Source: a virus
Reading direction: 5' to 3' (one strand)
IMG/VR virus record: IMGVR_UViG_3300005805_000046
Location: 32,001-96,000 of that record
Length of the DNA stretch: 64,000 nucleotides
Numbering within the stretch: position 1 is the first letter of the stretch; every line of letters starts with the position of its first letter. The notes beneath the pieces are model-generated. The model searched no databases. It was given only the letters and a program-made list of their open reading frames with translations, and had not been told where the DNA came from. The position numbers and the translations under genes were made by a program. Shown in pieces: positions 1-64,000 of this stretch.

Positions 1-30
1 CTCCTTTATATAGGAATACACCAAAATGGC

Positions 31-15828: not shown

Positions 15829-16196
15829 AGAAGAGCCTTCCTTAGTATTTGGCTATGTGGCAATATACTATCCCCAATAATCCAGCTACTACTATTTAGT
15901 CGCGTAGCATATGGAATATAGCAACTATAGTATATATGGGTTTGCAGAATTTTTTGTTCACTATAAAAGATATCTATATCCAATAATTTCGGCTGAGCCC
16001 AATTGTAATCAAGATCAATGTACTTATCGTATAATCCCTTCACAATCTCGTTAACGGATATTTCTTTAGTTTTATCTTTATCTGTCAATGAATCAAGATT
16101 AAGAGACGGCAGCCTCATAGTCTCCGAATCAACGGACAATAGATAAAGAGAACCCTCGTTAAAAGAATGTGCTAGTAAATTAATTAGCGTTAGCAT
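15816..16196 (-). CDS. hypothetical protein
   Basis: Overlapping, co-oriented ORF. Confidence 0.6.
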   Translation of the reverse strand: MLTLINLLAHSFNEGSLYLLSVDSETMRLPSLNLDSLTDKDKTKEISVNEIVKGLYDKYIDLDYNWAQPKLLDIDIFYSEQKILQTHIYYSCYIPYATRLNSSSWIIGDSILPHSQILRKALLCSK

Positions 16197-16749
16197 AAAA
16201 CCTTAGTATATTAATACTCTTATTAATGTTCTGCCTGATAGCCTCTCTAGTAACATTATAAATCTGACCTATCTCGGATAAAGTTTTATTTTCATAATAA
16301 TATAGGATTACTTGTTCTTTTTGCTTTTCTGTTAAGGGAGCAGCATTAATTAGCTCTTTGATATTTTTAGATAGGTTATCGCCTTCTTCTTTTTGAGCAA
16401 AAATCTTTGCTGGATCAGACAAATCAATACAGCTTGAATGCTCTATAGCGTGTTGAATCTGTGATTGGTCTTTTTTCTGTTTTCTATATCTCTGCGTTGC
16501 ATATGTTTTTATTGCCCAAATAGCACACTGGTTTCGATAAGAATAAAGACTCTTGCTTAGTCCAGTTTTTTTGCCTTTACGGTCTCCGTCCCACTTCCAA
16601 TCCGCTATCATGATCGCTTCGGCAATCTCAGATACGGCCTCGTCGTTCGATAGGATTTCCTTTACGAGAGAAGGATACATCTTTGATCCAAATTTAGAGA
16701 TAGTTTTTTTTGCTATATGTAAATAATTATCCAGGGTGTCGAATTCCAT
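16180..16749 (-). CDS. sigma-70-like factor (region 2-like plus region 4 HTH)
   Basis: LTEKQKEQVILYYYENKTLSEIGQIYNVTREAIRQ region-4 helix-turn-helix; SY...CAIWAIK region-2-like segment. Confidence 0.75.
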   Translation of the reverse strand: MEFDTLDNYLHIAKKTISKFGSKMYPSLVKEILSNDEAVSEIAEAIMIADWKWDGDRKGKKTGLSKSLYSYRNQCAIWAIKTYATQRYRKQKKDQSQIQHAIEHSSCIDLSDPAKIFAQKEEGDNLSKNIKELINAAPLTEKQKEQVILYYYENKTLSEIGQIYNVTREAIRQNINKSINILRFYANAN

Positions 16750-31849: not shown

Positions 31850-32176
31850 CTAATCATTATCTAGATCTTCGTCTTCAAGAGATTCTCTCCAATCTTCATT
31901 GTCTGGAATCCAGCCCTCGTTGGATTCGTAATCTTCTTCATGTTCATCTAGTTCTCCTATCTCAACACTTTCTTCAATAAAAAGAGTAAGTGTCATCATC
32001 ATTTCTACTACTGTGTCTAGTTTAGCAATGATCGTGTTGATCTGTTTCTTGATATCCTCGACATCTTTATTTAGTAACACTATATTTTTTAGTGTATTGT
32101 CTTCTAATTTATATATCTCTTGATTATTTTTGTTTACATTTTTTAGGATATCATTAATTTCTTTTGACACACCCAT
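31850..32176 (-). CDS. hypothetical coiled-coil acidic protein
   Basis: Co-oriented ORF with GGAG RBS. Confidence 0.65.
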   Translation of the reverse strand: MGVSKEINDILKNVNKNNQEIYKLEDNTLKNIVLLNKDVEDIKKQINTIIAKLDTVVEMMMTLTLFIEESVEIGELDEHEEDYESNEGWIPDNEDWRESLEDEDLDND

Positions 32177-40204: not shown

Positions 40205-40370
40205 TATTCTAGTTACTATGTTTTTTTCATCTTCTTCTCTAGTCTTTTCATCTTCTTTTCTAGTTTCTTTAGGTATTCCATTTCTTCTTCATGGAATTCC
40301 TTGTTTTCTTTTTCTATCTTTTTGAATATTTTTTTCCAGAATTTCATATTATATTCTCCTTGTTTTTAAG

Positions 40371-40724
40371 TGGAGGCGGCGGCATCGAAGCCGCGTCCTA
40401 GTAATACCGTTTTGATCTTTTCTACAAGTTTATTTTGTTCATAAATTAAGCGAAATTACAGAACAAACAAGACTTATTTCGCCTTACCAACTGCTCTTAA
40501 CCTACAACCCGCTGGATATTGTAAGTGCAGAGGGATTTAACGACAGACTTTTGATCGCTACCCTCATTCGCAATCGCAGTCTGTTACTGCCTGTTTTTAT
40601 TAGGCAGCAAGGGCTAACTGAGTTGTGCCAGTTAAAGCATTTGATATGATGATTAAAGAGGCCAACATATCATCCTCTACTTGCTAAAACCAATCGGTTA
40701 TTATAGTCGAAACCTTTCGCCCCC
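40371..40724 (-). ncRNA. ssrA: tmRNA, predicted tag (A)GTTQLALAA
   Basis: 5' GGGGGCG pairs with 3' CGCCTCC-A including G3-U70; T-arm GCGGC-TTCGAT-GCCGC; tag ORF 40600-40629 reads GGC ACA ACT CAG TTA GCC CTT GCT GCC TAA. Confidence 0.93.
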
Positions 40725-55858: not shown

Positions 55859-57199
55859 TTCTCTGCGAGTATTTTAAACTAGGAAAAATTCAGTGTCTGG
55901 TTTCTTGTAAAGATGAATCTTTGGTAATTTAGTTACCTTTGTTATTCTTCCTCTAGAATCCTTATGTTCTGATTCAATATAGAACCGATCTTTACCATCA
56001 CCATAATCCCTAAAATTCCAGGTATAATTTTTGATAATATCTTCTGGTCGTGCTTCACGATCATAGATTTCTCCTTCCACATGAAAAGTAATTATCCTAT
56101 TAAATAGCCTAGGCATTGTAATCCTCCTTTTCTTGTGTTAAGGTAGCGGGTTCATGAAAATCTTCCCAATTTTCTACCAAAATTTCAGGAGCCTCATGTC
56201 TAATTTCCGCTTCTAACGAACGATTAGATTCTCTATCTTTTTCTAGATCAAGATAGTCTCTCAACTTATCTTTGATCTGCATAAAGTCTAGTGACCCTAA
56301 GATATGGTCAATATACTTTCTTTGAATCTCGATACGATTCATTTCTGAGATATAACGGGCCTTCATAAATCACCTCATGGTAAAAAGTTAATAAAACAAT
56401 TTGCCCATGACTCCAAATAGTCTCCAGATATCTCTGACTACCTTTTGGCTCCGTTGACAATAGTATTTTACCACCGGTCAATAAGATGTCCAACAGAATT
56501 TTTAACTGACCCCATAATCTCGCTGACTATCGCCAAGACTGCCAATCGGATCAGATTAGGTAAGACAATCTATTGTTTATTTTTCAGCAGAGAGTCTGCT
56601 ATTTCGTTAATCTTATCAACACTAAAATAATCTTCATTAGTAATAAGACTATTCACAGTAGTAGAGCAAGAGATACTGTGAGAATGGTGAGGGGCAACAT
56701 TAACAGAATTTATGTTGTATGAAACCCACACACAAAAATATGCCAACGCATTCATAGGGGCCAACATAATTAATCCTCCAAGATTTCAGGATAGTATTCT
56801 ATAATTTCATTTTCCAAAGGCTCATTATCCATAAGACTCTTACTCTCCACCAACTGTTCATAAGCAAAACTATAAAGAGTATCAAAGTCCATATGATCCA
56901 AGATGGTAGAAGCATAGACCCTGATAATATCTTCTCTATTTTTATCTGTCACCACAACTCTATTCTGCATCATTACAAAGACCCCCAATTTTGGCTGACT
57001 ATCAGCAACGTCAGCAAATCCGTAGGATTAGATAGGACAATAGGTTAGAACTTAAAACAGACTTAGGATTAGTAGACTAGACATAACTGTAAATCTTTCT
57101 TATCCCAAACCCTTACTACTACTAGCCTTACGTTCCATTGTATCGTCACTTAGGGCAGTTGTCCATGACGTAAGTTGAGATTCTTTGAAGAAATTTGCC

Positions 57200-57279
57200 G
57201 TAACCCCTTGTGAATACTAAACTTAGGACTAATTTCCGGGGCCCCGCTCGCCCTAAACCCTCTTGGGCAAAGGACTTAG
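57200..57279. repeat. 80-bp double-palindrome element A
   Basis: gtaaccccttg-tgaat-actaaacttag, 26-bp spacer, ctaaaccctct-tgggc-aaaggacttag. Confidence 0.8.
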
Positions 57280-57309
57280 AGCGAGTCGGGGTTTCACCGA
57301 ACGAAAGGA

Positions 57310-58257
57310 TTAGATGGCGTTCGCAAACTCAAGAGCGGTCTTTAACGCCTTGCCGTTCTCGTTAGCGTTCTGGCCGAACCAGAGCGAATCGAGTCGGTTG
57401 TCGGTCGTGCGACCCTTGTTATAGTTAAGGTATTCGTTGTAGCCGTTATAAGCGGCCCACCAAGTACCCCTCACGCCCGTTGCTGATTGCTTCGGCCCTT
57501 CGACCAGAGCAAGAATCTCGTCCATGATATTGCGGGTACGAGTCTTAATGTCCTCGTCCACGGTGCCTTCGATACCCAGCATTACCTTAACGTACCGACG
57601 AATATCGGCCTGATTAAAGTTCTTGCTAGCGAGGAATCGAAACTGTTCCGCAGTAGCCTCAAACTGGACATTAATGTTATCCATAATATCCCGCACTTGT
57701 TCCAGATTCTTTTGGCTGGAGCGAGTGTGTCGAATCCGAATCAATTGCGATCCGCTATTGCTATGGGCCATAGCCATCGTGTTAGCACACACAACGCGAA
57801 TCGGGGTATAGCCGACGCGAATTGCGGTTGTGCCATCATGGCTGTTAGACAGAAGGATAAACTTGGAAACCTCGTCACCCTTCACGATCTCGCTATTGTC
57901 ACGGTTGAGTTGAGCGAGAACCCATACCTTTTGACCGCTATGGAGCGATCCGGCAGTATGGAGTTGGCACTCGTTAGCATCGAGAAACGGCTGGAACCAA
58001 TCGAAAGCATCGCTGTTTTGCAGCGGGGTATATCGCGGGCCAACAACACCCAAGATAGAATTGTCCGTCTTGCGATAGGTTGCACGAGCCGGAACCGGAG
58101 TACCTTCGCTCGTAAACAAATCCTTAAGACCAACCTCCCAGTCCAGACCAGCGGAGGTAATCGCCTCGCTAATCGTGGGAGCCTCGTCCAACTGATTGCC
58201 AAGACCGTGCCACGGGGTAGCACCAACAAACATCATCTGTTCAACTGCATGAGCCAT
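57310..58257 (-). CDS. DUF932 / phage-plasmid LGT-family protein
   Basis: PWHGLG, Y.PLQN..AF, AGSL..G..VW, L.NSHDG, RVVCANT and RHT motifs. Confidence 0.9.
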   Translation of the reverse strand: MAHAVEQMMFVGATPWHGLGNQLDEAPTISEAITSAGLDWEVGLKDLFTSEGTPVPARATYRKTDNSILGVVGPRYTPLQNSDAFDWFQPFLDANECQLHTAGSLHSGQKVWVLAQLNRDNSEIVKGDEVSKFILLSNSHDGTTAIRVGYTPIRVVCANTMAMAHSNSGSQLIRIRHTRSSQKNLEQVRDIMDNINVQFEATAEQFRFLASKNFNQADIRRYVKVMLGIEGTVDEDIKTRTRNIMDEILALVEGPKQSATGVRGTWWAAYNGYNEYLNYNKGRTTDNRLDSLWFGQNANENGKALKTALEFANAI

Positions 58258-58300
58258 CTCATTGCCCTTTCGTGTTATCGTACTTCGTTCAACTCCACTT

Positions 58301-58328
58301 ATTCTACAGTATGTTATCGGCTTGTCAA
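58301..58328 (-). promoter_or_regulatory. sigma70-type promoter with GCCGATA spacer box
   Basis: TTGACA-agccgataacatactg-TAGAAT with upstream A/T tract. Confidence 0.8.
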
Positions 58329-58358
58329 CAGGAAATCTTGCGAAAAAATTTTCTCGCC

Positions 58359-58438
58359 GTAAGGTGTTGATGCGTAAGGGTTTGCGTCACGCGGGGCCGC
58401 CCCGGCTCGCCCTAAGTCTTTGGCGGGCCTGGATTTAG
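58359..58438. repeat. 80-bp double-palindrome element B
   Basis: gtaaggtgttg-atgcg-taagggtttgc, 26-bp GC spacer, ctaagtctttg-gcggg-cctggatttag. Confidence 0.85.
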
Positions 58439-58918
58439 GAACAGCGTGCCGAAATCACGTTCAAAAAGTTTAGCGTTATCGGTGTTGTATGCACACTCAT
58501 CCGGCATATAACAATAAACGCCAACACACTTGGATTTAGGACATTCTTCGTAGATGGTATTTTTAATAAATTTGATAGTAGAGCCAGAGCAAACCAGATC
58601 GTCAACAATAACGTATCTAAAAGGAATCACACCCTCTATAGCAAAATCACTATACGATTTTGTTTCTGGTTTTCTAATTACAACAATGTGCTTATCTAGT
58701 AATTCTGCTATTTGCGGAACAACCATCAATCCACTAGTTCCGCAGCAAACAATACTATCGAACTGATTGCTAATCTTACGCAGGTCGCAAACAGCCTTTA
58801 CAATAGCCCTATTTCTAATCTTGTGGTTCAATACCATGCAGGTGTGGCTAGCACCTTGTATAACCTTGCCATCTGCCATTACCCTGAAATCATCTATATT
58901 CTGATTCAGCGTATTCAT
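58412..58918 (-). CDS. type I phosphoribosyltransferase-like protein
   Basis: G.SG, RK and YVIVDDLVCSGST PRPP-binding loop. Confidence 0.85.
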   Translation of the reverse strand: MNTLNQNIDDFRVMADGKVIQGASHTCMVLNHKIRNRAIVKAVCDLRKISNQFDSIVCCGTSGLMVVPQIAELLDKHIVVIRKPETKSYSDFAIEGVIPFRYVIVDDLVCSGSTIKFIKNTIYEECPKSKCVGVYCYMPDECAYNTDNAKLFERDFGTLFLNPGPPKT

Positions 58919-58921
58919 AAG

Positions 58922-59008
58922 AGTGGATGGTGCGATTCGAACGCACTACTTTAGAAAAGAAAGAAAGAATTTATAGAAAAGAGTCTCGTCCCACCGAGAT
59001 GCATCCAC
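58922..59008 (-). ncRNA. tRNA-like RNA with the anticodon arm replaced by a pyrimidine tract
   Basis: GTGGATG/CATCCAC acceptor stem, TCTCG-GTGGGA-CGAGA D-like arm, GTGCG-TTCGAAT-CGCAC T-arm. Confidence 0.7.
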
Positions 59009-59253
59009 ATAGTTACTCGTCAACAATTTCATCTTCTACAGTATTGTACGAATTAACCCATTCATCAATGTCTTTATCGTCATTAACTTCGTACAGTTCG
59101 TCCTCATTATAATCTTCTTCCTCTAGAAGATCATCAAATTCACTATTCATCATAGTTTGATAGTCGAACGGATAGTCTGTTTCTTCGTCATTGTAACGCA
59201 TAAACTCACTCCTTTCTAATTCTAGAATACACCAAATGGGTCAACTTGTCAAG

Positions 59254-59327
59254 TGGGCCCCCTGGGACTCGAACCCAGAACCAACAGATTAAAAGTCTGT
59301 TGCACTAACCAATTGTGCTAGAGGCCC
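59254..59327 (-). tRNA. tRNA-Lys(TTT)
   Basis: Full cloverleaf; ACAGA-CT-TTT-AA-TCTGT anticodon arm. Confidence 0.95.
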
Positions 59328-59740
59328 ATCAGTAAGTATTTTACTTATAGTTGCCTATATAGTCAATAGCCTTACATTTACGCCAAGATACAGGAATACC
59401 GCCTTTAGGATAGTGATTAGTATTAACGTCGCTGCCGTCGCTTTGCTCGGGGGAATGGTCAACGAAATGAACAATATACGTTTTTGTAGCGCCCTGTCCA
59501 TCAACCCCAACAACCCTAGCCCTGCTGGCAGTATACAAGCCAGTCTCATACCAGACTATATCGCCTTCCTGAAAGTTGTTCATTCTGTTAATTTTCTTCC
59601 ATATTGATTTGAGAATATCCTGTGATCATACCTAGTCCAATAATAATAATAAATAAAGTTGACAAATTCGCTATTCTCCAAGGTGCGGGTCGATCCTATA
59701 TCAGTATACAGCAGTCTCCACAGTTGTCAAACATACACAG

Positions 59741-59811
59741 CAAAGGCGGAAGGAGTCGAACCTTCATCTACGGTTTTGGAGACCGTCATTCTACCGTTGA
59801 ACTACGCCAAT
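59741..59811 (-). tRNA. tRNA-Trp(CCA) with mismatched acceptor stem
   Basis: ACGGT-CT-CCA-AA-ACCGT anticodon arm; acceptor ATTGGCG/CGCCTTT has two U-U mismatches. Confidence 0.8.
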
Positions 59812-59837
59812 GTCCGCAACTCTGCGTCAGCCTCCGA

Positions 59838-59924
59838 CGGAATCTGAGGGATTCGAACCCCCGGAGGATTTTAACCCTCGGCGGTTTAGTAAACCGCTGC
59901 CTTAAACCACTCGGCCAAGATTCC
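59838..59924 (-). tRNA. tRNA-Ser(ACT)
   Basis: GGAATCT/AGATTCC acceptor with G73, long variable arm, GCGGT-TT-ACT-AA-ACCGC anticodon arm. Confidence 0.9.
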
Positions 59925-59927
59925 AAA

Positions 59928-59999
59928 CTGCCCGACTAGGACTCGAACCTAGAACCTACAAATTAACAGTTTGCCGCACTACCATTGTGCTATCGGGCA
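59928..59999 (-). tRNA. tRNA-Asn(GTT)
   Basis: Full cloverleaf; GCAAA-CT-GTT-AA-TTTGT anticodon arm. Confidence 0.93.
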
Positions 60000-60004
60000 A
60001 AAAA

Positions 60005-60427
60005 TTATACCGCCACTTCCCTTGGCATAATCTTATAAGTCTTACTACGAATATCAGTGCTTGTCATATTATTCTCTATCTCAAAATCCAAAATCTTTGC
60101 CATAACTATCAAGTCATCTGCTATTCTATTATAGTCTTTTTCGCAAGAACCAAATGCTACATTACTATTATAGTTCAAACAAGAAAGCAATTCGGCCGAT
60201 ATGTTCTCTATAGCAGCAAATTTCATTTTATAACCATATAGGTTAGATCTACTGTTATTAGTCATAAACTCATACATCATTATTCCCATATCGCTAATAG
60301 AATTATTAAAAGAACGAATAGTAACTTCATTCTTTTTGATAGTATCTATTCTTTGAGTCTCGTTCATCTTGGTGAGACCCCAACTGCCGATTTCTCTTGC
60401 CAAGTATATCGCATTACTTCCAAGCAT
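60005..60427 (-). CDS. hypothetical protein inside the tRNA cluster
   Basis: AAGGAG RBS before MLGSN. Confidence 0.6.
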   Translation of the reverse strand: MLGSNAIYLAREIGSWGLTKMNETQRIDTIKKNEVTIRSFNNSISDMGIMMYEFMTNNSRSNLYGYKMKFAAIENISAELLSCLNYNSNVAFGSCEKDYNRIADDLIVMAKILDFEIENNMTSTDIRSKTYKIMPREVAV

Positions 60428-60445
60428 AATTATCTCCTTTATTAA

Positions 60446-60516
60446 TTCCGGGGCTAGGATTCGAACCCAGACAAAGAGAACCAAAATCTCTGGTGCTACC
60501 GTTACACTACCCCGGA
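60446..60516 (-). tRNA. tRNA-Gln(TTG)
   Basis: Full cloverleaf; AGAGA-TT-TTG-GT-TCTCT anticodon arm. Confidence 0.93.
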
Positions 60517-60517
60517 G

Positions 60518-60590
60518 AGCCGATGATAGGAGTCGAACCTACAACCCACGGTTTACAAAACCGTTGCTCTGCCATTGAAGCTACATCGGC
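60518..60590 (-). tRNA. tRNA-Thr(TGT)
   Basis: Full cloverleaf; ACGGT-TT-TGT-AA-ACCGT anticodon arm. Confidence 0.95.
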
Positions 60591-60625
60591 AATCCTACAT
60601 ATCATACTCTTGCTGCCAGCCCCTG

Positions 60626-60994
60626 TCAATGTCTCGTCGTGTTCGCTGTCGCTTGGGCCTGCTGTCCATAGTAGTATCCCGATACTCCTTGTGTCCCGTA
60701 GGAGCCTCCCAAGGCTGCTTGACCTTGACTTTGATCTTGCCGTACTTGCGGCGTGGTCGGGTATCGTCGTTGTTGTGGAGCGTAATCATGCCATTGTCCA
60801 TTTTCGTGTAAGTAAAAAACCTTGTCAACATTAGGGTCGTAAGCCATTAAGCAGTATTGTACTGGATAAACTACTTTTGTCAATACTTCTTTTTTTGGTA
60901 GTTTGGGTATTTTTATATCACCCTTCTGATAGTCTTTTACACCATTATAGGCTAATCCTAATAGGGCAATAATAACCCCTATCCACTGAATCAT
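60626..60994 (-). CDS. membrane-anchored hypothetical protein
   Basis: GGAG RBS, N-terminal transmembrane helix; promoter at 61017-61045. Confidence 0.55.
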   Translation of the reverse strand: MIQWIGVIIALLGLAYNGVKDYQKGDIKIPKLPKKEVLTKVVYPVQYCLMAYDPNVDKVFYLHENGQWHDYAPQQRRYPTTPQVRQDQSQGQAALGGSYGTQGVSGYYYGQQAQATANTTRH

Positions 60995-61063
60995 TCTTTC
61001 TCCCTTGCGTCTGATGAGCATACCATAGTTATCGGTAGTTGTCCACCCATTCTTTAGTTTTTC

Positions 61064-61143
61064 CTAAGTGGTTGAAATATAAGGGGTTACGATCAGCCGG
61101 GCCGGCCCCGCTCGCCCTAAGTGCTTACGCCCAAAGGGTTTGC
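61064..61143. repeat. 80-bp double-palindrome element C
   Basis: ctaagtggttg-aaata-taaggggttac, 26-bp GC spacer, ctaagtgctta-cgccc-aaagggtttgc. Confidence 0.85.
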
Positions 61144-61151
61144 GGTTAGTT

Positions 61152-61394
61152 TTATTCGTCTTCTCTATTGATTTCCCAGCCGGCTAGTCTACATACTTTA
61201 TTTAGTTTGATAACCTGCGTTAACTTATCGGCTGTAGTATAGTCTCTAAAACCACGCTCATCTATATAGAAGTATTCATCTAGAACATCGAACTTATTGC
61301 TTTCGCCAAGAGTAGTTACTGCTGCCTCAAGAGGATTTTTACTTGTTGAGTAGATTAGTTCTAGCGTACCACATTTGACATAATATTTAGACAT
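61152..61394 (-). CDS. hypothetical protein
   Basis: Likely start MSKYYV with GAGG RBS. Confidence 0.6.
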   Translation of the reverse strand: MSKYYVKCGTLELIYSTSKNPLEAAVTTLGESNKFDVLDEYFYIDERGFRDYTTADKLTQVIKLNKVCRLAGWEINREDE

Positions 61395-61980
61395 AACATT
61401 CCTCGCATTTAGGGCAGTCACAATAAGCATCATCAACGCCTTGATAGCAAACTTCTGGAAACATATCGTCGTCCGTATATCCGATACTTTCTCGTCCAAA
61501 GTCAATCGGAACTAATATCCTAGATTTGCCACGCCTAACATATCCAAAATTACCCTCATGGCAATCAGAGTATTCCACCCCGTAGTCGCTGATTTCTTCC
61601 AACAAATCAGATAAAACATAATAGTTAGAGCAACATCCAGAATCTATACAAGACCCCTCACACTCACTATTTCTACACACAAAAGGCTTTGCAATTTCGG
61701 TTAAGTAACCCCAATCGCTCAATACCATTTCTGTACGATATTTTATCTTATTGTTCTTGATGCCGTCTACAAAATAATTAGGAACCCTGATCCTACACAC
61801 AGGACTATAAACCTTCGGAGCAAGATATGGGGCCAAATGACTTTGAACAGCATGAGCAAACTCGGCCAAACTCTTATTAGGAAAACTCTTGAAACCATAT
61901 GGTTTTCCAGACAGTTTATAGAAAGAGTTCCTGCTACCACTATTCTCATACTTTCCAACATAACTAAATTTAGCAGCCAT
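61387..61980 (-). CDS. protein-kinase-like protein, paralog of 32494-33027
   Basis: GFKSF, LAPKVY, WGYLTE, DCHEGNFG and IDFG motifs. Confidence 0.7.
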   Translation of the reverse strand: MAAKFSYVGKYENSGSRNSFYKLSGKPYGFKSFPNKSLAEFAHAVQSHLAPYLAPKVYSPVCRIRVPNYFVDGIKNNKIKYRTEMVLSDWGYLTEIAKPFVCRNSECEGSCIDSGCCSNYYVLSDLLEEISDYGVEYSDCHEGNFGYVRRGKSRILVPIDFGRESIGYTDDDMFPEVCYQGVDDAYCDCPKCEECYV

Positions 61981-61988
61981 GATTATTC

Positions 61989-62696
61989 CTAGTGAGCGGG
62001 AAACAGTACGTTAGCCAAACCCTTGACGCACATATCACAACTTATACTATCTTTCGTACCGGTGCAAGTGATAACCGAACGACCGCGACGAATTTCTGGA
62101 CAAGTCACAAACTTCTCACCGTTCAGCACGACCAGTTTGGGCAACGCTTGCCGCCAAGCGTCGGCCTTAGCCTTGTTCTTTGGTCGCTTCGGGGCAATTT
62201 TCATATCGCTATCGCACCACGCAAACAACTTGAAGCCTTGATTCTTAGCCTCATTCATATCGTTATCGTCGTGAACACTAGCATAGACTGCCATATACTT
62301 TTCCAGAGCCACGAGCCGACTATCGTAGATATGAGTATAGAACCACATATCGGGCAGACTATCGCCACTAGCAAGAATACTCTCGCAAGCCCACGTTACA
62401 TTATCAACGTAGTCTGTGTCAAGTTCACCATTGAGAAACCAATCGCCACGTTCATGCCAGCGGATAGATTTCTCACGCTTTTTTGCGTCAAGAATCATAG
62501 CACGGATTTTGTTTTTCTCCGTGATTACGTTAGCAAAACCAGCGACACGGGCGTTTTTGTACTGCCGTTCAGTACCTTCGGCATAACAGCCGTTTCCGAG
62601 ATAATCGCAATCGCTTGGGCAAGTATCGCCAACCGGACGCGAAACCACAATGCAACCCTTACCCAACTTATCATTACCGTCTGCGGTTTTCATCAT
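61989..62696 (-). CDS. Cys-cluster phage protein (Gp88-like, radical-SAM-related fold)
   Basis: N.KLG, TCP..C......CYA, IRWHE.GD, WFYTH and C..C motifs. Confidence 0.6.
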   Translation of the reverse strand: MMKTADGNDKLGKGCIVVSRPVGDTCPSDCDYLGNGCYAEGTERQYKNARVAGFANVITEKNKIRAMILDAKKREKSIRWHERGDWFLNGELDTDYVDNVTWACESILASGDSLPDMWFYTHIYDSRLVALEKYMAVYASVHDDNDMNEAKNQGFKLFAWCDSDMKIAPKRPKNKAKADAWRQALPKLVVLNGEKFVTCPEIRRGRSVITCTGTKDSISCDMCVKGLANVLFPAH

Positions 62697-62718
62697 TCTT
62701 CTCCTAGCGTGTCTGATG

Positions 62719-62747
62719 ATTCTACACTAGGTTATCGGTACTGTCAA
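62719..62747 (-). promoter_or_regulatory. sigma70-type promoter with CCGATA spacer box
   Basis: TTGACA-gtaccgataacctagtg-TAGAAT. Confidence 0.8.
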
Positions 62748-62776
62748 GGCATTTTCTTGAAGAAATTATTTTTGAC

Positions 62777-62856
62777 GCAAGGTGTTGATACTAAAGGAGT
62801 TACGTCAAGCGGGGCCGCCCCCGCTCGCCCTAAGTCTTTATCCTCAAAGAGTTTAG
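62777..62856. repeat. 80-bp double-palindrome element D
   Basis: gcaaggtgttg-atact-aaaggagttac, 26-bp GC spacer, ctaagtcttta-tcctc-aaagagtttag. Confidence 0.85.
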
Positions 62857-62912
62857 AAGCAGTTCACACATGCTTAAAAACTGCTCAGTAGTTTCTGCTT
62901 CGTTTTTCATAG

Positions 62913-62984
62913 TAGCCCCAAGAGGAATCGAACCTCTAACCAGTGCTTAGAAGGCACTTGTTATATCCATTTAACTATGGGGCC
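62913..62984 (-). tRNA. tRNA-Arg(TCT)
   Basis: Full cloverleaf; AGTGC-CT-TCT-AA-GCACT anticodon arm. Confidence 0.95.
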
Positions 62985-62985
62985 G

Positions 62986-63176
62986 TCAATGCCGCAGGCC
63001 CGCCACGGCGTCCCGTGCGGGTTATGCGGTTGATGGTGGAGCCACTTTACCATCGGTAATATACTAGCAGCAGACCCCTTCCCAGCAACCACGCTGGTTA
63101 TCAGTTGGTTAGACTCTGCTAGGTGGGTATTTCCCACATCATTACGCGGGAGTTATCCCGCCGCACTATGCCTAAA
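62986..63176 (-). ncRNA. unidentified multi-helix structured RNA
   Basis: Six GC-rich helices, no ORF, TTGACA-N17-TATAAA promoter at 63182-63210. Confidence 0.6.
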
Positions 63177-63210
63177 ATCTATTTATACTGGCATAGTCCA
63201 GTTGTGTCAA

Positions 63211-63459
63211 CTAGGCCGTAGCCTCTGCCGTCACCTTCGCGTTGTGAGCATCACCTGCCTGCTCGGCAGTCACGCCCGTCACCCTAGCACGCCACACCTT
63301 GTAGCCCTGCTCGCTAAAAGCCTTGATTTCCCCAGCCTTCACATTAGCGTGAACATCGCCAGGGAGCGAATCACTCAGGCACGAACGAATCGAAGAAACA
63401 ACCTCGTCACGATCCAGTTCATCAGCCACAACATCAACCACAAACGTAAACTTCTTCAT
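63211..63459 (-). CDS. hypothetical protein
   Basis: AAGGG RBS; promoter TTGACA-N17-TAAAAT at 63501-63529. Confidence 0.7.
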   Translation of the reverse strand: MKKFTFVVDVVADELDRDEVVSSIRSCLSDSLPGDVHANVKAGEIKAFSEQGYKVWRARVTGVTAEQAGDAHNAKVTAEATA

Positions 63460-63590
63460 TTGTAAACCCTTTCCAAAGTGTTATCGAACCAAGTAAACCA
63501 ATTTTACCTAATCAGTCATCACTTGTCAAGAGTCTGCCAGATGGTTTCTGCTGTTTGGCATCTGCTGTCGTCTTGTCTTGTGATGCTATC

Positions 63591-63618
63591 AGTATACAAT
63601 AGTTATCGGCACTGTCAA
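63591..63618 (-). promoter_or_regulatory. sigma70-type promoter with GCCGATA spacer box
   Basis: TTGACA-gtgccgataactattg-TATACT. Confidence 0.8.
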
Positions 63619-63660
63619 CCCCATTCGTGAATCATTTTTTGAGATTTCCAAAAATTTGTT

Positions 63661-63740
63661 CTAAGTCATTGGTACATAACGAGTTACGTCGAGCCGGGCC
63701 GGCTCCGTTTACCGTAAGTGCTTACGGCATAGGGGTTTAG
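63661..63740. repeat. 80-bp double-palindrome element E
   Basis: ctaagtcattg-gtaca-taacgagttac, 26-bp GC spacer, gtaagtgctta-cggca-taggggtttag. Confidence 0.85.
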
Positions 63741-63741
63741 G

Positions 63742-64000
63742 TCATGAGAGAAATCCCTGACAACCCAAAGCCACAAGATCGCGCAGCAACTTCTCGGCCG
63801 CTGCTGGTGTGGGCAGAGTCACGCTATTACGACCCTTGCCGTTTACAAAACGACAAAGGGTGTAATCATACGCACCCATCAGTTCATCGCTCCAATCCTT
63901 CGACTCCTTCAAGCCCCATCCGGTAGCAAGCCGAATAGCCTTGATGGAAGCGATCCGGTTGTCGGTGGTCATTCCACCGGTAATGGTCACCGTTCGGTAC
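63742..64000 (-). CDS. ribosomal protein bL12 C-terminal-like domain protein (5' end probably outside the window)
   Basis: RIASIKAIRLATGWGLKESKD resembles the bL12 CTD motif KI..IK.VR..TGLGLKEAK. Confidence 0.7.
   Translation of the reverse strand, partial: YRTVTITGGMTTDNRIASIKAIRLATGWGLKESKDWSDELMGAYDYTLCRFVNGKGRNSVTLPTPAAAEKLLRDLVALGCQGFLS

Follow-up and report, generated by a model that had tools for sequence, protein, structure and literature searches.

Four-box repeats upstream of early promoters in a large uncultured phage: candidate phased sites for a putative DNA-binding protein

The early region of the phage genome represented by IMG/VR record IMGVR_UViG_3300005805_000046 raises the question of what a conserved, repeated non-coding element does between genes and promoters. 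The original prediction, made on a window of 64,000 nucleotides (positions 32,001 to 96,000 of the record), described five 80-bp double-palindrome elements. It proposed two possible functions: an integron-like or dif-module-like array that shuffles gene cassettes, or phased binding sites for a dimer-of-dimers protein that activates or protects first-injected DNA.

With regard to the elements themselves, a repeat search of the window showed that the five belong to one repeat family, and a model built from sequence only (R1) matched all five sites on the minus strand, with E-values of 2e-17 to 2e-22, which confirms their existence and location. Scanning window positions 1-57000 with R1 revealed no further element. 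As predicted, each of the five is preceded by a gene or tRNA end, according to the ORF table and the tRNA positions, and followed by a sigma70-type promoter. In transcription order, the elements and promoters are the following.

63654..63744, minus strand: four-box element (genome ~95701; R1 64.0 bits, E 7e-19, nhmmer), starting directly after the stop (63742-63744) of a 123-aa ORF (63742-63999) that runs off the window end.
63591..63618, minus strand: sigma70-type promoter TTGACA-16-TATACT, preceded by an AT-rich tract and containing CCGATA in its spacer (regex and consensus scans), serving the 82-aa ORF 63211-63459, a Pistol ribozyme and tRNA-Arg.
62770..62862, minus strand: four-box element (genome ~94817; R1 75.4 bits, E 2e-22), downstream of tRNA-Arg (62912-62984).
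62719..62747, minus strand: promoter TTGACA-17-TAGAAT with CCGATAAC in the spacer (regex scan), serving ORFs 61989-62696 (DUF7227/GP88-like, Pfam), 61387-61980 and 61152-61394.
61058..61150, minus strand: four-box element (genome ~93104; R1 69.7 bits, E 1e-20), beginning just past the stop of ORF 61152-61394.
61017..61045, minus strand: promoter TGGACA-17-TATGCT with CCGATAAC in the spacer (promoter scan), serving ORF 60626-61021 and a tRNA cluster.
58354..58444, minus strand: four-box element (genome ~90399; R1 65.0 bits, E 4e-19), overlapping the stop (58412-58414) of the phosphoribosyltransferase-like ORF 58412-58918 (PHROGs).
58301..58328, minus strand: promoter TTGACA-16-TAGAAT, which has a full UP-like tract and contains CCGATAAC in its spacer (regex scan), serving the DUF932-like ORF 57310-58257 (tblastn).
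57193..57286, minus strand: four-box element (genome ~89240; R1 59.3 bits, E 2e-17), closing the array in the direction of transcription and following the stop of ORF 57310-58257.
57137..57165, minus strand: weaker promoter TGGACA-17-TACAAT, past the last element (consensus and promoter scans).

The predicted geometry, a pair of palindromes with centres 53 bp apart and a GC-rich spacer, holds. Each element comprises two imperfect palindromes of 27-29 bp around a GC-rich core of ~24-26 bp, and in the family alignment these exhibit an 11-7-11 organisation (columns 9-19/20-26/27-37 and 62-72/73-79/80-90). Read on its sense strand, which is the minus strand, the element is nevertheless better seen as an 82-bp array of four 10-bp YAA-N4-TTR boxes (a to d) with spacings of 15, 38 and 15 bp, the inner pair being AAGGACTTAGG and its inverse CGTAAGTCCTT on either side of the core. 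Among the 458 unique sequences of the family, the box positions are near-invariant (AA, TT, ACTTA and TAA at 1.5-2.0 bits), whereas most positions in the spacers and the core do not exceed 0.4 bit. In the sense direction, the order is upstream stop codon, element, AT-rich tract and near-consensus sigma70 promoter. In ~60% of 442 copies, the upstream ORF stops between -30 and +35 relative to element column 1, the distribution peaking at +4/+5 and at -2.

The array extends beyond the window end. The whole phage genome, which is complete according to CheckV (153.6 kb), contains 15 full copies and one half copy (R1 model, nhmmer), all located at 89.2-105.9 kb, a single 17-kb early-gene region. The GC content of the enclosing region is 0.43-0.44 as compared with 0.386 genome-wide, in agreement with the GC-richer enclosed genes noted in the original prediction. 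Partial elements, halves and quarters, retain the promoter-proximal boxes. A further ~590 copies were found in 116 related IMG/VR stretches, and no copy was found in cultured phages. In 8/8 large genomes examined, the copies form one cluster of 12-20 kb. In a relative with direct terminal repeats, this cluster is located at 197-216 kb of 244 kb, and the idea that the elements act on first-injected DNA finds no support.

The association with promoters is close. All 16 copies in this genome have a downstream sigma70-type promoter, and 282 of 442 family members exhibit a strict TTGACN-16..18-TAnnnT motif 10-60 bp downstream. The distance between the last box and the -35 hexamer peaks at 21, 31-32, 42, 52 and 62-64 bp, with a vector strength of 0.69 for a 10.5-bp period that falls to 0.63 once similar linkers are collapsed. 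Outside the main peak, 49 of 77 distances are in phase (p = 2e-10). Such a quantised distance points to a constraint acting on double-stranded DNA. Linkers made of phased A-tracts, rather than protein contact, could be a partial source of this phasing. About half of the region's promoters carry no element while displaying the same core features, so the element is dispensable for promoter function.

Based on these observations, we consider it somewhat probable that the element is a set of phased sites for a putative DNA-binding protein that marks early transcription-unit boundaries. The element would act in cis on double-stranded DNA, its four boxes being most likely bound by a sequence-specific protein, probably an oligomer. 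It would open a conserved subset of early transcription units, right after the upstream stop codon, and keep a fixed helical phase with the AT-rich tract and the near-consensus sigma70 promoter. As the promoters are already near-consensus, the bound protein may repress or time them, or insulate them from read-through that originates at the numerous strong promoters further upstream, rather than activate them. The dimer-of-dimers part of the original prediction thus fits the conserved sequence without covariation and the ~10.5-bp quantised distance, whereas activation is not favoured.

Alternatively, the element could work at the RNA level, to terminate or attenuate transcription, stabilise 3' ends or direct processing, through hairpins formed by boxes a and b, the GC core, and boxes c and d. 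This would account for its beginning at the upstream gene's stop codon and for the presence of just one canonical terminator on the sense strand in 20 kb; in addition, whole-element minimum free energies are below those of shuffles in 90% of copies, some copies form strong hairpins (with z of about -3 in two of them), and the stem-loops of promoter-early stem-loop cassettes (PeSLs) are proven terminators (PMC2839356). However, no compensatory change was observed in any pairing among the 458 sequences: for a:b, c:d, b:c and a:d, the Watson-Crick fraction equals the column-frequency expectation, and the variable positions of box a lie opposite invariant partners in box b. Mutual information for the proposed pairings does not exceed 0.12, all top pairs being adjacent columns, and RNAalifold found no consensus structure for the family. 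The GC core folds no better than its shuffles (mean -7.7 vs -8.3 kcal/mol; 4 of 153 copies in the lowest 5% of their own shuffles), and the sense and antisense strands fold alike (-23.2 vs -23.0 kcal/mol). No U-tract was found after any stem of the element, no sense-strand site was found within any element in the terminator scan, and no Rfam covariance model matched over any element, either at gathering score or at E <=1. Moreover, an RNA signal is not expected to be phased to the -35 hexamer. The absence of covariation, together with a core no better than shuffles, indicates that the element is neither a stem-loop terminator nor an attC/REP-type hairpin, and we regard a function through RNA folding as improbable. 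An RNA role through sequence-specific recognition without base pairing is possible.

The sites known as dif, loxP and FRT are tyrosine-recombinase core sites with inverted arms and a spacer. The ~11-bp inverted arms around a 7-bp spacer, two per element, resemble such sites as well as pdif and attC sites, and modules are gained and lost near some elements; the 11-7-11 palindromes could thus be the core sites of a host Xer or phage enzyme, in an integron-like or dif-module-like array. In contrast, the original prediction's observation that no recombinase is encoded in the window extends to the complete genome, from which tyrosine recombinases (PF00589), serine recombinases (PF00239) and Y1 transposases (PF01797) are absent, positive controls of these searches having matched. 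The 7-bp spacers differ between copies within this genome (columns 20-26 and 74-78 at 0.03-0.46 bit), which would block strand exchange between copies, and attC-type folded-strand features are lacking. Synteny breakpoints, had the cassettes been shuffled, should be visible among relatives; instead, gene order is collinear (3674 concordant vs 128 discordant gene-family pairs) and junction occupancy is all-or-none, with for example 29/29, 22/22 and 21/21 relatives carrying the element at some junctions and 0/35 and 0/33 at others. Conservation of orthologous elements equals or exceeds that of the flanking coding DNA (0.65-0.84 vs 0.54-0.81). Although the copies are without exception direct repeats, the array is stable in the eight genomes. 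Cassette shuffling by site-specific recombination, as initially proposed, is consequently very improbable.

The closest known analogue is, by its organisation, the PeSL promoter cassette, which in T4-type phages combines a stem-loop, an AT-rich tract and a sigma70 promoter between small early ORFs (Arbiol et al. 2010, PMC2839356; Comeau et al. 2014, PMC4122927). Both are composite conserved intergenic modules in which the upstream stop is followed by a motif, then by an AT-rich tract, a near-consensus sigma70 promoter and the next gene, and both are clustered in a plastic region, associated in PeSLs, and possibly here, with ORF modules that are gained, lost or replaced between close relatives. 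The upstream motif differs: in PeSLs, it is a simple G-run/C-run stem-loop that terminates transcription (PMC2839356), whereas the present element has an 82-bp dyad of four boxes in its place, without a selected hairpin or a U-tract, which is strongly conserved in sequence rather than structure, keeps one helical phase relative to the promoter and occupies orthologous positions that are conserved. A stable terminator stem-loop of the PeSL type was rejected on the covariation, shuffle, U-tract and RNAalifold results given above. As for the phage, it has an rIIA gene, at most 31% identical to that of any cultured phage, and a Kyano_Gp96 domain; the Gp23 Pfam search gave no match, but neither did the controls of the same search. 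The phage is not demonstrably T4-type.

This analogy suggests another possible main role, namely a repeated linker for homologous recombination of promoter-plus-ORF modules between co-infecting relatives, protein binding being secondary. Between relatives of at least 84% identity, 13 of 50 similarity ends lie within 15 bp of elements as compared with 5.6 expected (p about 0.004), and 12 of 50 within 15 bp of promoters as compared with 6.3 expected (p about 0.02). In one worked case, a module comprising element, promoter and a 67-aa ORF is present here and missing in a 90%-identical relative, the last codons of the upstream gene being replaced; the location between small early ORFs, next to an AT-rich tract and a sigma70 promoter, is also that of PeSLs. 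No site-to-site junction was found at this insertion, which is a further argument against a recombinase site. Nevertheless, homology alone suffices for recombination, so the conservation of boxes with variable spacers is left unexplained, as are the fixed helical phase to the promoter and the all-or-none orthologous occupancy. Many indel ends are found at plain promoters or gene ends without an element, and some BLAST ends at elements are mere local divergence inside collinear alignments. We therefore consider a primary linker role rather unlikely. With the phased-site reading, module exchange would be a side effect, as repeated boundary-plus-promoter sequences may be places of gain, loss and replacement between related phages, as in PeSLs.

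The element's short length, dyad symmetry, intergenic location and high copy number would also suit a selfish miniature mobile element, or a repeat of the REP/BIME type copied from a host. A search of 596 Gb of prokaryote genomes (GTDB), however, gave only 6 exact-pattern matches, four of them on short contigs (2.5-4.6 kb) of metagenome-assembled genomes and the other two on contigs that measure 97 and 277 kb, as against 116 IMG/VR stretches. The copies share one region and one orientation at conserved orthologous positions. Membership of the REP, BIME or MITE families was rejected on these GTDB counts, the absence of compensatory hairpin changes and the absence of a Y1 transposase, and this explanation is close to refuted.

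Other systems of protein-binding sites resemble the element. At E. coli rrnB P1, Fis sites I-III accompany an UP element, and phage phi29 has four p4 inverted-repeat sites. These share with the element several short symmetric sites upstream of -60 of a strong sigma70 promoter with an UP-like tract, and face-of-helix spacing. Nonetheless, the boxes do not appear to match the consensus of Fis or that of p4, and here each genome carries ~15 repeats of the module, which also adjoins the end of the upstream gene. The stoperators of cluster A mycobacteriophages are single 13-bp asymmetric repressor sites, dispersed genome-wide in short intergenic gaps of temperate phages with a known repressor, in one orientation relative to transcription. 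The likeness lies in the many copies of one putative protein-binding motif at gene boundaries, with orientation tied to transcription, whereas here 82-bp four-box arrays occupy one early region and, unlike in stoperator phages, the genome gave no match for an integrase or a Cro/CI-type HTH (HTH_3).

Concerning the putative binder, HU/IHF, HTH_17 and Bro-N also gave no match in the genome, and thirty early ORFs displayed no DNA-binding Pfam domain. Region 4 of a single phage sigma factor is the only recognisable sequence-specific DNA-binding domain in the genome. With the 13-bp IHF consensus WATCAANNNNTTR, the boxes have just the core YAA-N4-TTR in common; the WAT positions of this consensus show no conservation upstream of box d (at most 0.28 bit in columns 76-78), and a distance of 15 bp between box centres probably leaves too little room for two IHF footprints. 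Tentatively, the element could be the operator of a global switch, in which one putative protein, encoded by the host or by an early phage gene or brought in with the virion, would act on ~15 phased four-box arrays and time or insulate a conserved set of early units lineage-wide.

Gene lists are nearly all that is available for large uncultured phages, whose regulatory DNA has for the most part not been read. The element is a non-coding signal that is strongly conserved, repeated many times and subject to clear rules, which concern the sequence of its boxes, their spacing, the helical phase to the promoter and the fixed positions. It charts early transcription units across an entire phage lineage and predicts a DNA-binding factor. 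The idea of promoter cassettes as module boundaries, developed for PeSLs, would reach beyond classical T4-type phages, and their upstream part need not be a terminator hairpin. Together with its near-consensus promoter, the element may provide a compact insulator-plus-promoter part. If the global-switch reading were true, it would represent a new kind of phage regulatory architecture and a new DNA-recognition motif in a lineage of 150-240-kb phages.

The source record, of which the window covers bases 32001-96000, is a single IMG/VR virus genome of 153,585 bp, rated complete by CheckV, with a GC content of 38.6%. It encodes rIIA, tail proteins, DNA ligase, a tmRNA, ten tRNAs and a Pistol ribozyme. 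In 50,697 phage records, identity to the best rIIA match does not exceed 31%, and the record is a large phage genome distant from cultured phages. The five elements of the original prediction are real: a repeat search of the window grouped them as one family, and an nhmmer profile built from them found 16 loci in the genome, all located at 89.2-105.9 kb (E-values down to 8.5e-25) and all with the minus strand as best strand. The genes of this region lie on the minus strand, on which the element is also described. Scanning the whole genome and relatives with a profile thus bore out the observation of five copies and extended it: with R1, a sequence-only Infernal model of the element, 15 full copies and one half copy were found in the genome, and none at positions 1-57000 of the window.

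IMG/VR contigs of 10-244 kb contain 116 stretches with the exact pattern ACTTAGGGCGAG-N17..21-CGTAAS. These stretches (roughly 0.9 Mb) yielded 590 non-overlapping elements with nhmmer, comprising 458 unique sequences. The family profile exhibits four 10-bp boxes:

Box a, CGTAArYCCTTg, profile columns 9-20
Box b, wAAGGACTTAGG, profile columns 26-37
Box c, CGTAAGTCCTTA, profile columns 62-73
Box d, CAAnnnCTTAcG, profile columns 79-90

Box c is the reverse complement of box b; box a is a more degenerate version of c, and box d of b. The spacings are 15 bp from a to b, 38 bp from b to c, 15 bp from c to d, and 53 bp from a to c. The interval between b and c consists of GGCGAG, about 15 GC-rich and very variable bases, and TtTGAcG; the variable stretch takes 401 different versions in the 458 sequences, and the 7-bp spacers are also unlike between copies. 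In most copies, the upstream ORF terminates at the element or slightly ahead of it; the positions of its stop codon peak at columns +4/+5, -2 and +10. On the 3' side, an A/T-rich tract comes first, then a motif of the form (T/C)AAAG or CAAG, and then a sigma70-type promoter, the spacer of which often contains CCGATA(A). In 282 of 442 contexts, a strict TTGACN-16..18-TAnnnT promoter is present at 10-60 bp downstream of the element, and each of the 16 copies in this genome is likewise followed by one. A sigma28, ECF or sigma70 promoter within the element itself, formed by box b and the core GCCGA(A/T) or by TTGACG at columns 58-63, was checked by eye and rejected: the spacings do not fit (25 nt vs 21 nt in the phage's own motifs), and a -10 follows TTGACG in only 17 of 442 copies. 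Two reduced forms were observed:

Genome ~103895-103945 (15895-15945 of L001, a stretch of this genome), minus strand, lone b/d-type box (AAGGACTTAGG), 32 nt before a TTGACT -35 hexamer, which is the standard spacing
Genome 105881-105927, half element

Together, they suggest that the promoter-proximal box is the minimal unit.

With regard to the early sigma70-type promoters, CCGATA(A) in the spacer is accompanied by (T/C)AAAG about 21 nt upstream of it. On the minus strand, 22 promoters show this combination (genome 67.5-104.7 kb, e.g. window 62719-62747); the plus strand has none, and the combined pattern is common in the promoters of relatives. It resembles a sigma28 (FliA)-like promoter laid over the sigma70 one. 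The phage encodes one sigma-70-family factor, which is ECF-like with weaker similarity to FliA/WhiG, and which could be the reader of this motif. This factor and other features of the genome are as follows:

Window 16180-16749, minus strand, sigma factor, 189 aa, passing the cut-off of the sigma70-ECF superfamily model TIGR02937
Window 40370-40724, minus strand, tmRNA, 113.9 bits, tag peptide GTTQLALAA
Window 59013-59201, minus strand, acidic early protein, 62 aa, 26 D/E
Window 59836-59925, minus strand, tRNA-Ser, anticodon ACT (ARAGORN), an unusual A34 anticodon, in a cluster of seven phage tRNAs
Window 63140-63202, minus strand, Pistol ribozyme, 53.7 bits vs a gathering score of 34.5
Window 63742-64000, continuing to genome 96113, minus strand, ORF of a 123-aa early protein
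Genome 101541-101795 (L001 13541-13795), minus strand, acidic early protein, 84 aa, 29 D/E and no K/R
Genome 106031-107275 (L001 18031-19275), minus strand, subtilase, 414 aa, Peptidase_S8, E 2e-42

The ribozyme lies between an 82-aa early ORF (63211-63459) and a tRNA-Arg, within one element-bounded transcription unit; in L071, a stretch from a relative that is 96% identical next door, 72 nt take the place of the 235-nt stretch that bears the ribozyme (genome 94985-95220). The two small acidic proteins are candidate DNA mimics or anti-restriction proteins. For the 123-aa protein, similarity to the C-terminal domain of ribosomal protein L7/L12 stays below threshold (E 1e-4, 23.1 bits vs a cut-off of 25.9). 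The subtilase gene is located just upstream of the first (half) element and has its own promoter, after the only canonical terminator of the region.

The inverted boxes could be read as an RNA or single-strand hairpin. RNAalifold gave no consensus structure for the 15 copies of this genome, and single-copy folds vary among copies. Among the 458 unique sequences, no compensated pair was found for a:b, c:d, b:c, a:d or three core registers. For each pairing, the observed Watson-Crick fraction equals that expected from column frequencies (MI <=0.12), and the 45 top MI pairs, nearly all of them between adjacent or near-adjacent columns, include no predicted pair. The variable columns 14 and 15 of box a are opposite the invariant box b partners C32 and A31, which leaves most copies with a mismatched a:b stem. 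The hairpin of the GC core is no stronger than mononucleotide shuffles (mean -7.7 vs -8.3 kcal/mol), and the core fold is in the lowest 5% of its own shuffles for only 4 of 153 sampled copies. Folding is equally good for the sense and antisense strands, none of the stems has a U-tract after it, a terminator scan found no sense-strand terminator inside the elements, and Rfam gave no match, whether at the gathering score or at E <=1. As neither covariation nor a selected fold is observed, the symmetry of the element is one of conserved sequence and not of selected base pairs. The hairpin reading was therefore rejected.

The original prediction offered two readings, namely an integron-like or dif-module-like cassette array, or phased sites for a dimer-of-dimers protein. 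Loci were oriented by their elements and their sense-strand ORFs clustered into 688 families; the order of families in the other loci is concordant with this genome for 3674 pairs and discordant for 128. The element occupancy of a given family junction is conserved all-or-none across loci, with 29/29, 22/22, 21/21, 19/20, 18/18 and 17/17 at junctions with an element and 0/35, 0/33, 1/28 and 1/25 at junctions without. Orthologous elements are at least as conserved as the flanking 90 nt of coding sequence (0.65-0.84 vs 0.54-0.81). About half of the region's promoters lack an element, which thus marks only some of the units, mostly those of widely conserved genes. A tyrosine recombinase (PF00589) was not found in the genome, nor were a serine recombinase (PF00239) or a Y1 transposase (PF01797), while positive controls matched. 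These stable positions, the differing 7-bp spacers, and the lack of a recombinase or transposase disfavour the integron-like and dif-module-like readings as well as a MITE or REP family. In 596 Gb of prokaryote genomes, there were only six matches to the exact pattern, four on MAG contigs of 2.5-4.6 kb and two on contigs of 97 and 277 kb. Megablast and blastn against the 50,697 phage records gave no element match, and R1, with a working positive control, found no copy in Melnitz-3, C48C1 and LR756511. A single cluster of copies, ~12-20 kb long, was also observed in each of seven further large genomes, of which six are rated complete. In the one relative with direct terminal repeats, this cluster is internal, at 197-216 kb of 244 kb; the proposed role on first-injected DNA is not supported.

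Some exchange may take place at the elements. In relatives at least 84% identical, 13 of 50 similarity ends lie within 15 bp of an element, vs 5.6 expected (p ~0.004), and 12 of 50 within this limit of a promoter, vs 6.3 expected (p ~0.02). In one case, an element, a promoter and a 67-aa ORF are present here, whereas a 90%-identical relative joins both neighbour genes directly; the final codons of the upstream gene differ, and the junction shows neither a target duplication nor a second element. This resembles the behaviour of the closest known kind, namely the PeSL (promoter-early stem-loop) cassette of T4-type phages, a repeated linker in which a terminator of the G/C stem-loop type is combined with an AT-rich tract and a sigma70 promoter, and at which module exchange and mini-circle formation take place (PMC2839356, PMC4122927). 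Position and promoter features are shared with PeSL, but the stem-loop that defines it is absent, and the four-box, helically phased, operator-like array at conserved positions goes beyond it. Since recombination alone leaves the anatomy, phasing and stable positions unexplained, module exchange is regarded here as a by-product.

Measured between the last base of box d and the first of the -35 hexamer, the distances are not spread evenly but peak at 20-22, 30-33, 41-44, 52 and 62-65 bp, with a vector strength of 0.69-0.71 at 10.5-11 bp. When similar linkers were collapsed to 142, the vector strength was 0.63, vs a maximum of 0.25 in 5000 jittered controls. With the main peak excluded, 49 of 77 distances are within 1 bp of this peak ± multiples of 10.5 bp (29% expected, p = 2e-10). 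As the linkers within each distance class differ in sequence, these classes are not copies of one ancestor. The 53-bp repeat corresponds to five turns, so that a and c share one face of the helix, while b and d share a different one. Such a face-of-helix rule is expected for a duplex-bound protein touching RNA polymerase or something at the promoter; a designed bend could produce it as well, but a terminator or an RNA signal would not be expected to. The phased protein-binding reading fits the evidence, given the sequence conservation without covariation and the helical phase to the -35 hexamer.

With regard to the protein, no match to HU/IHF (PF00216), HTH_3 (PF01381), HTH_17 (PF12728) or Bro-N (PF02498) was found in the genome; searches for the MotA C-terminal domain and AsiA also gave no match, but are uninformative, as they had no positive control matches. 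No DNA-binding domain was found in 30 early ORFs with Pfam or in 10 ORFs with PHROGs, and the boxes fit no promoter geometry tried for the phage sigma factor. The boxes share a YAA-N4-TTR core with IHF sites, but the rest of the IHF consensus is not matched. Resemblances to MotA-box, CpxR, RcsAB, TyrR and CtrA sites were also considered, but the spacings do not fit. Possible binders are a nucleoid protein of the host, a protein delivered with the virion or a novel early protein. Near-consensus sequences and UP-like tracts are already present in the linked promoters, so the bound protein would more likely repress, time or insulate them than activate them.
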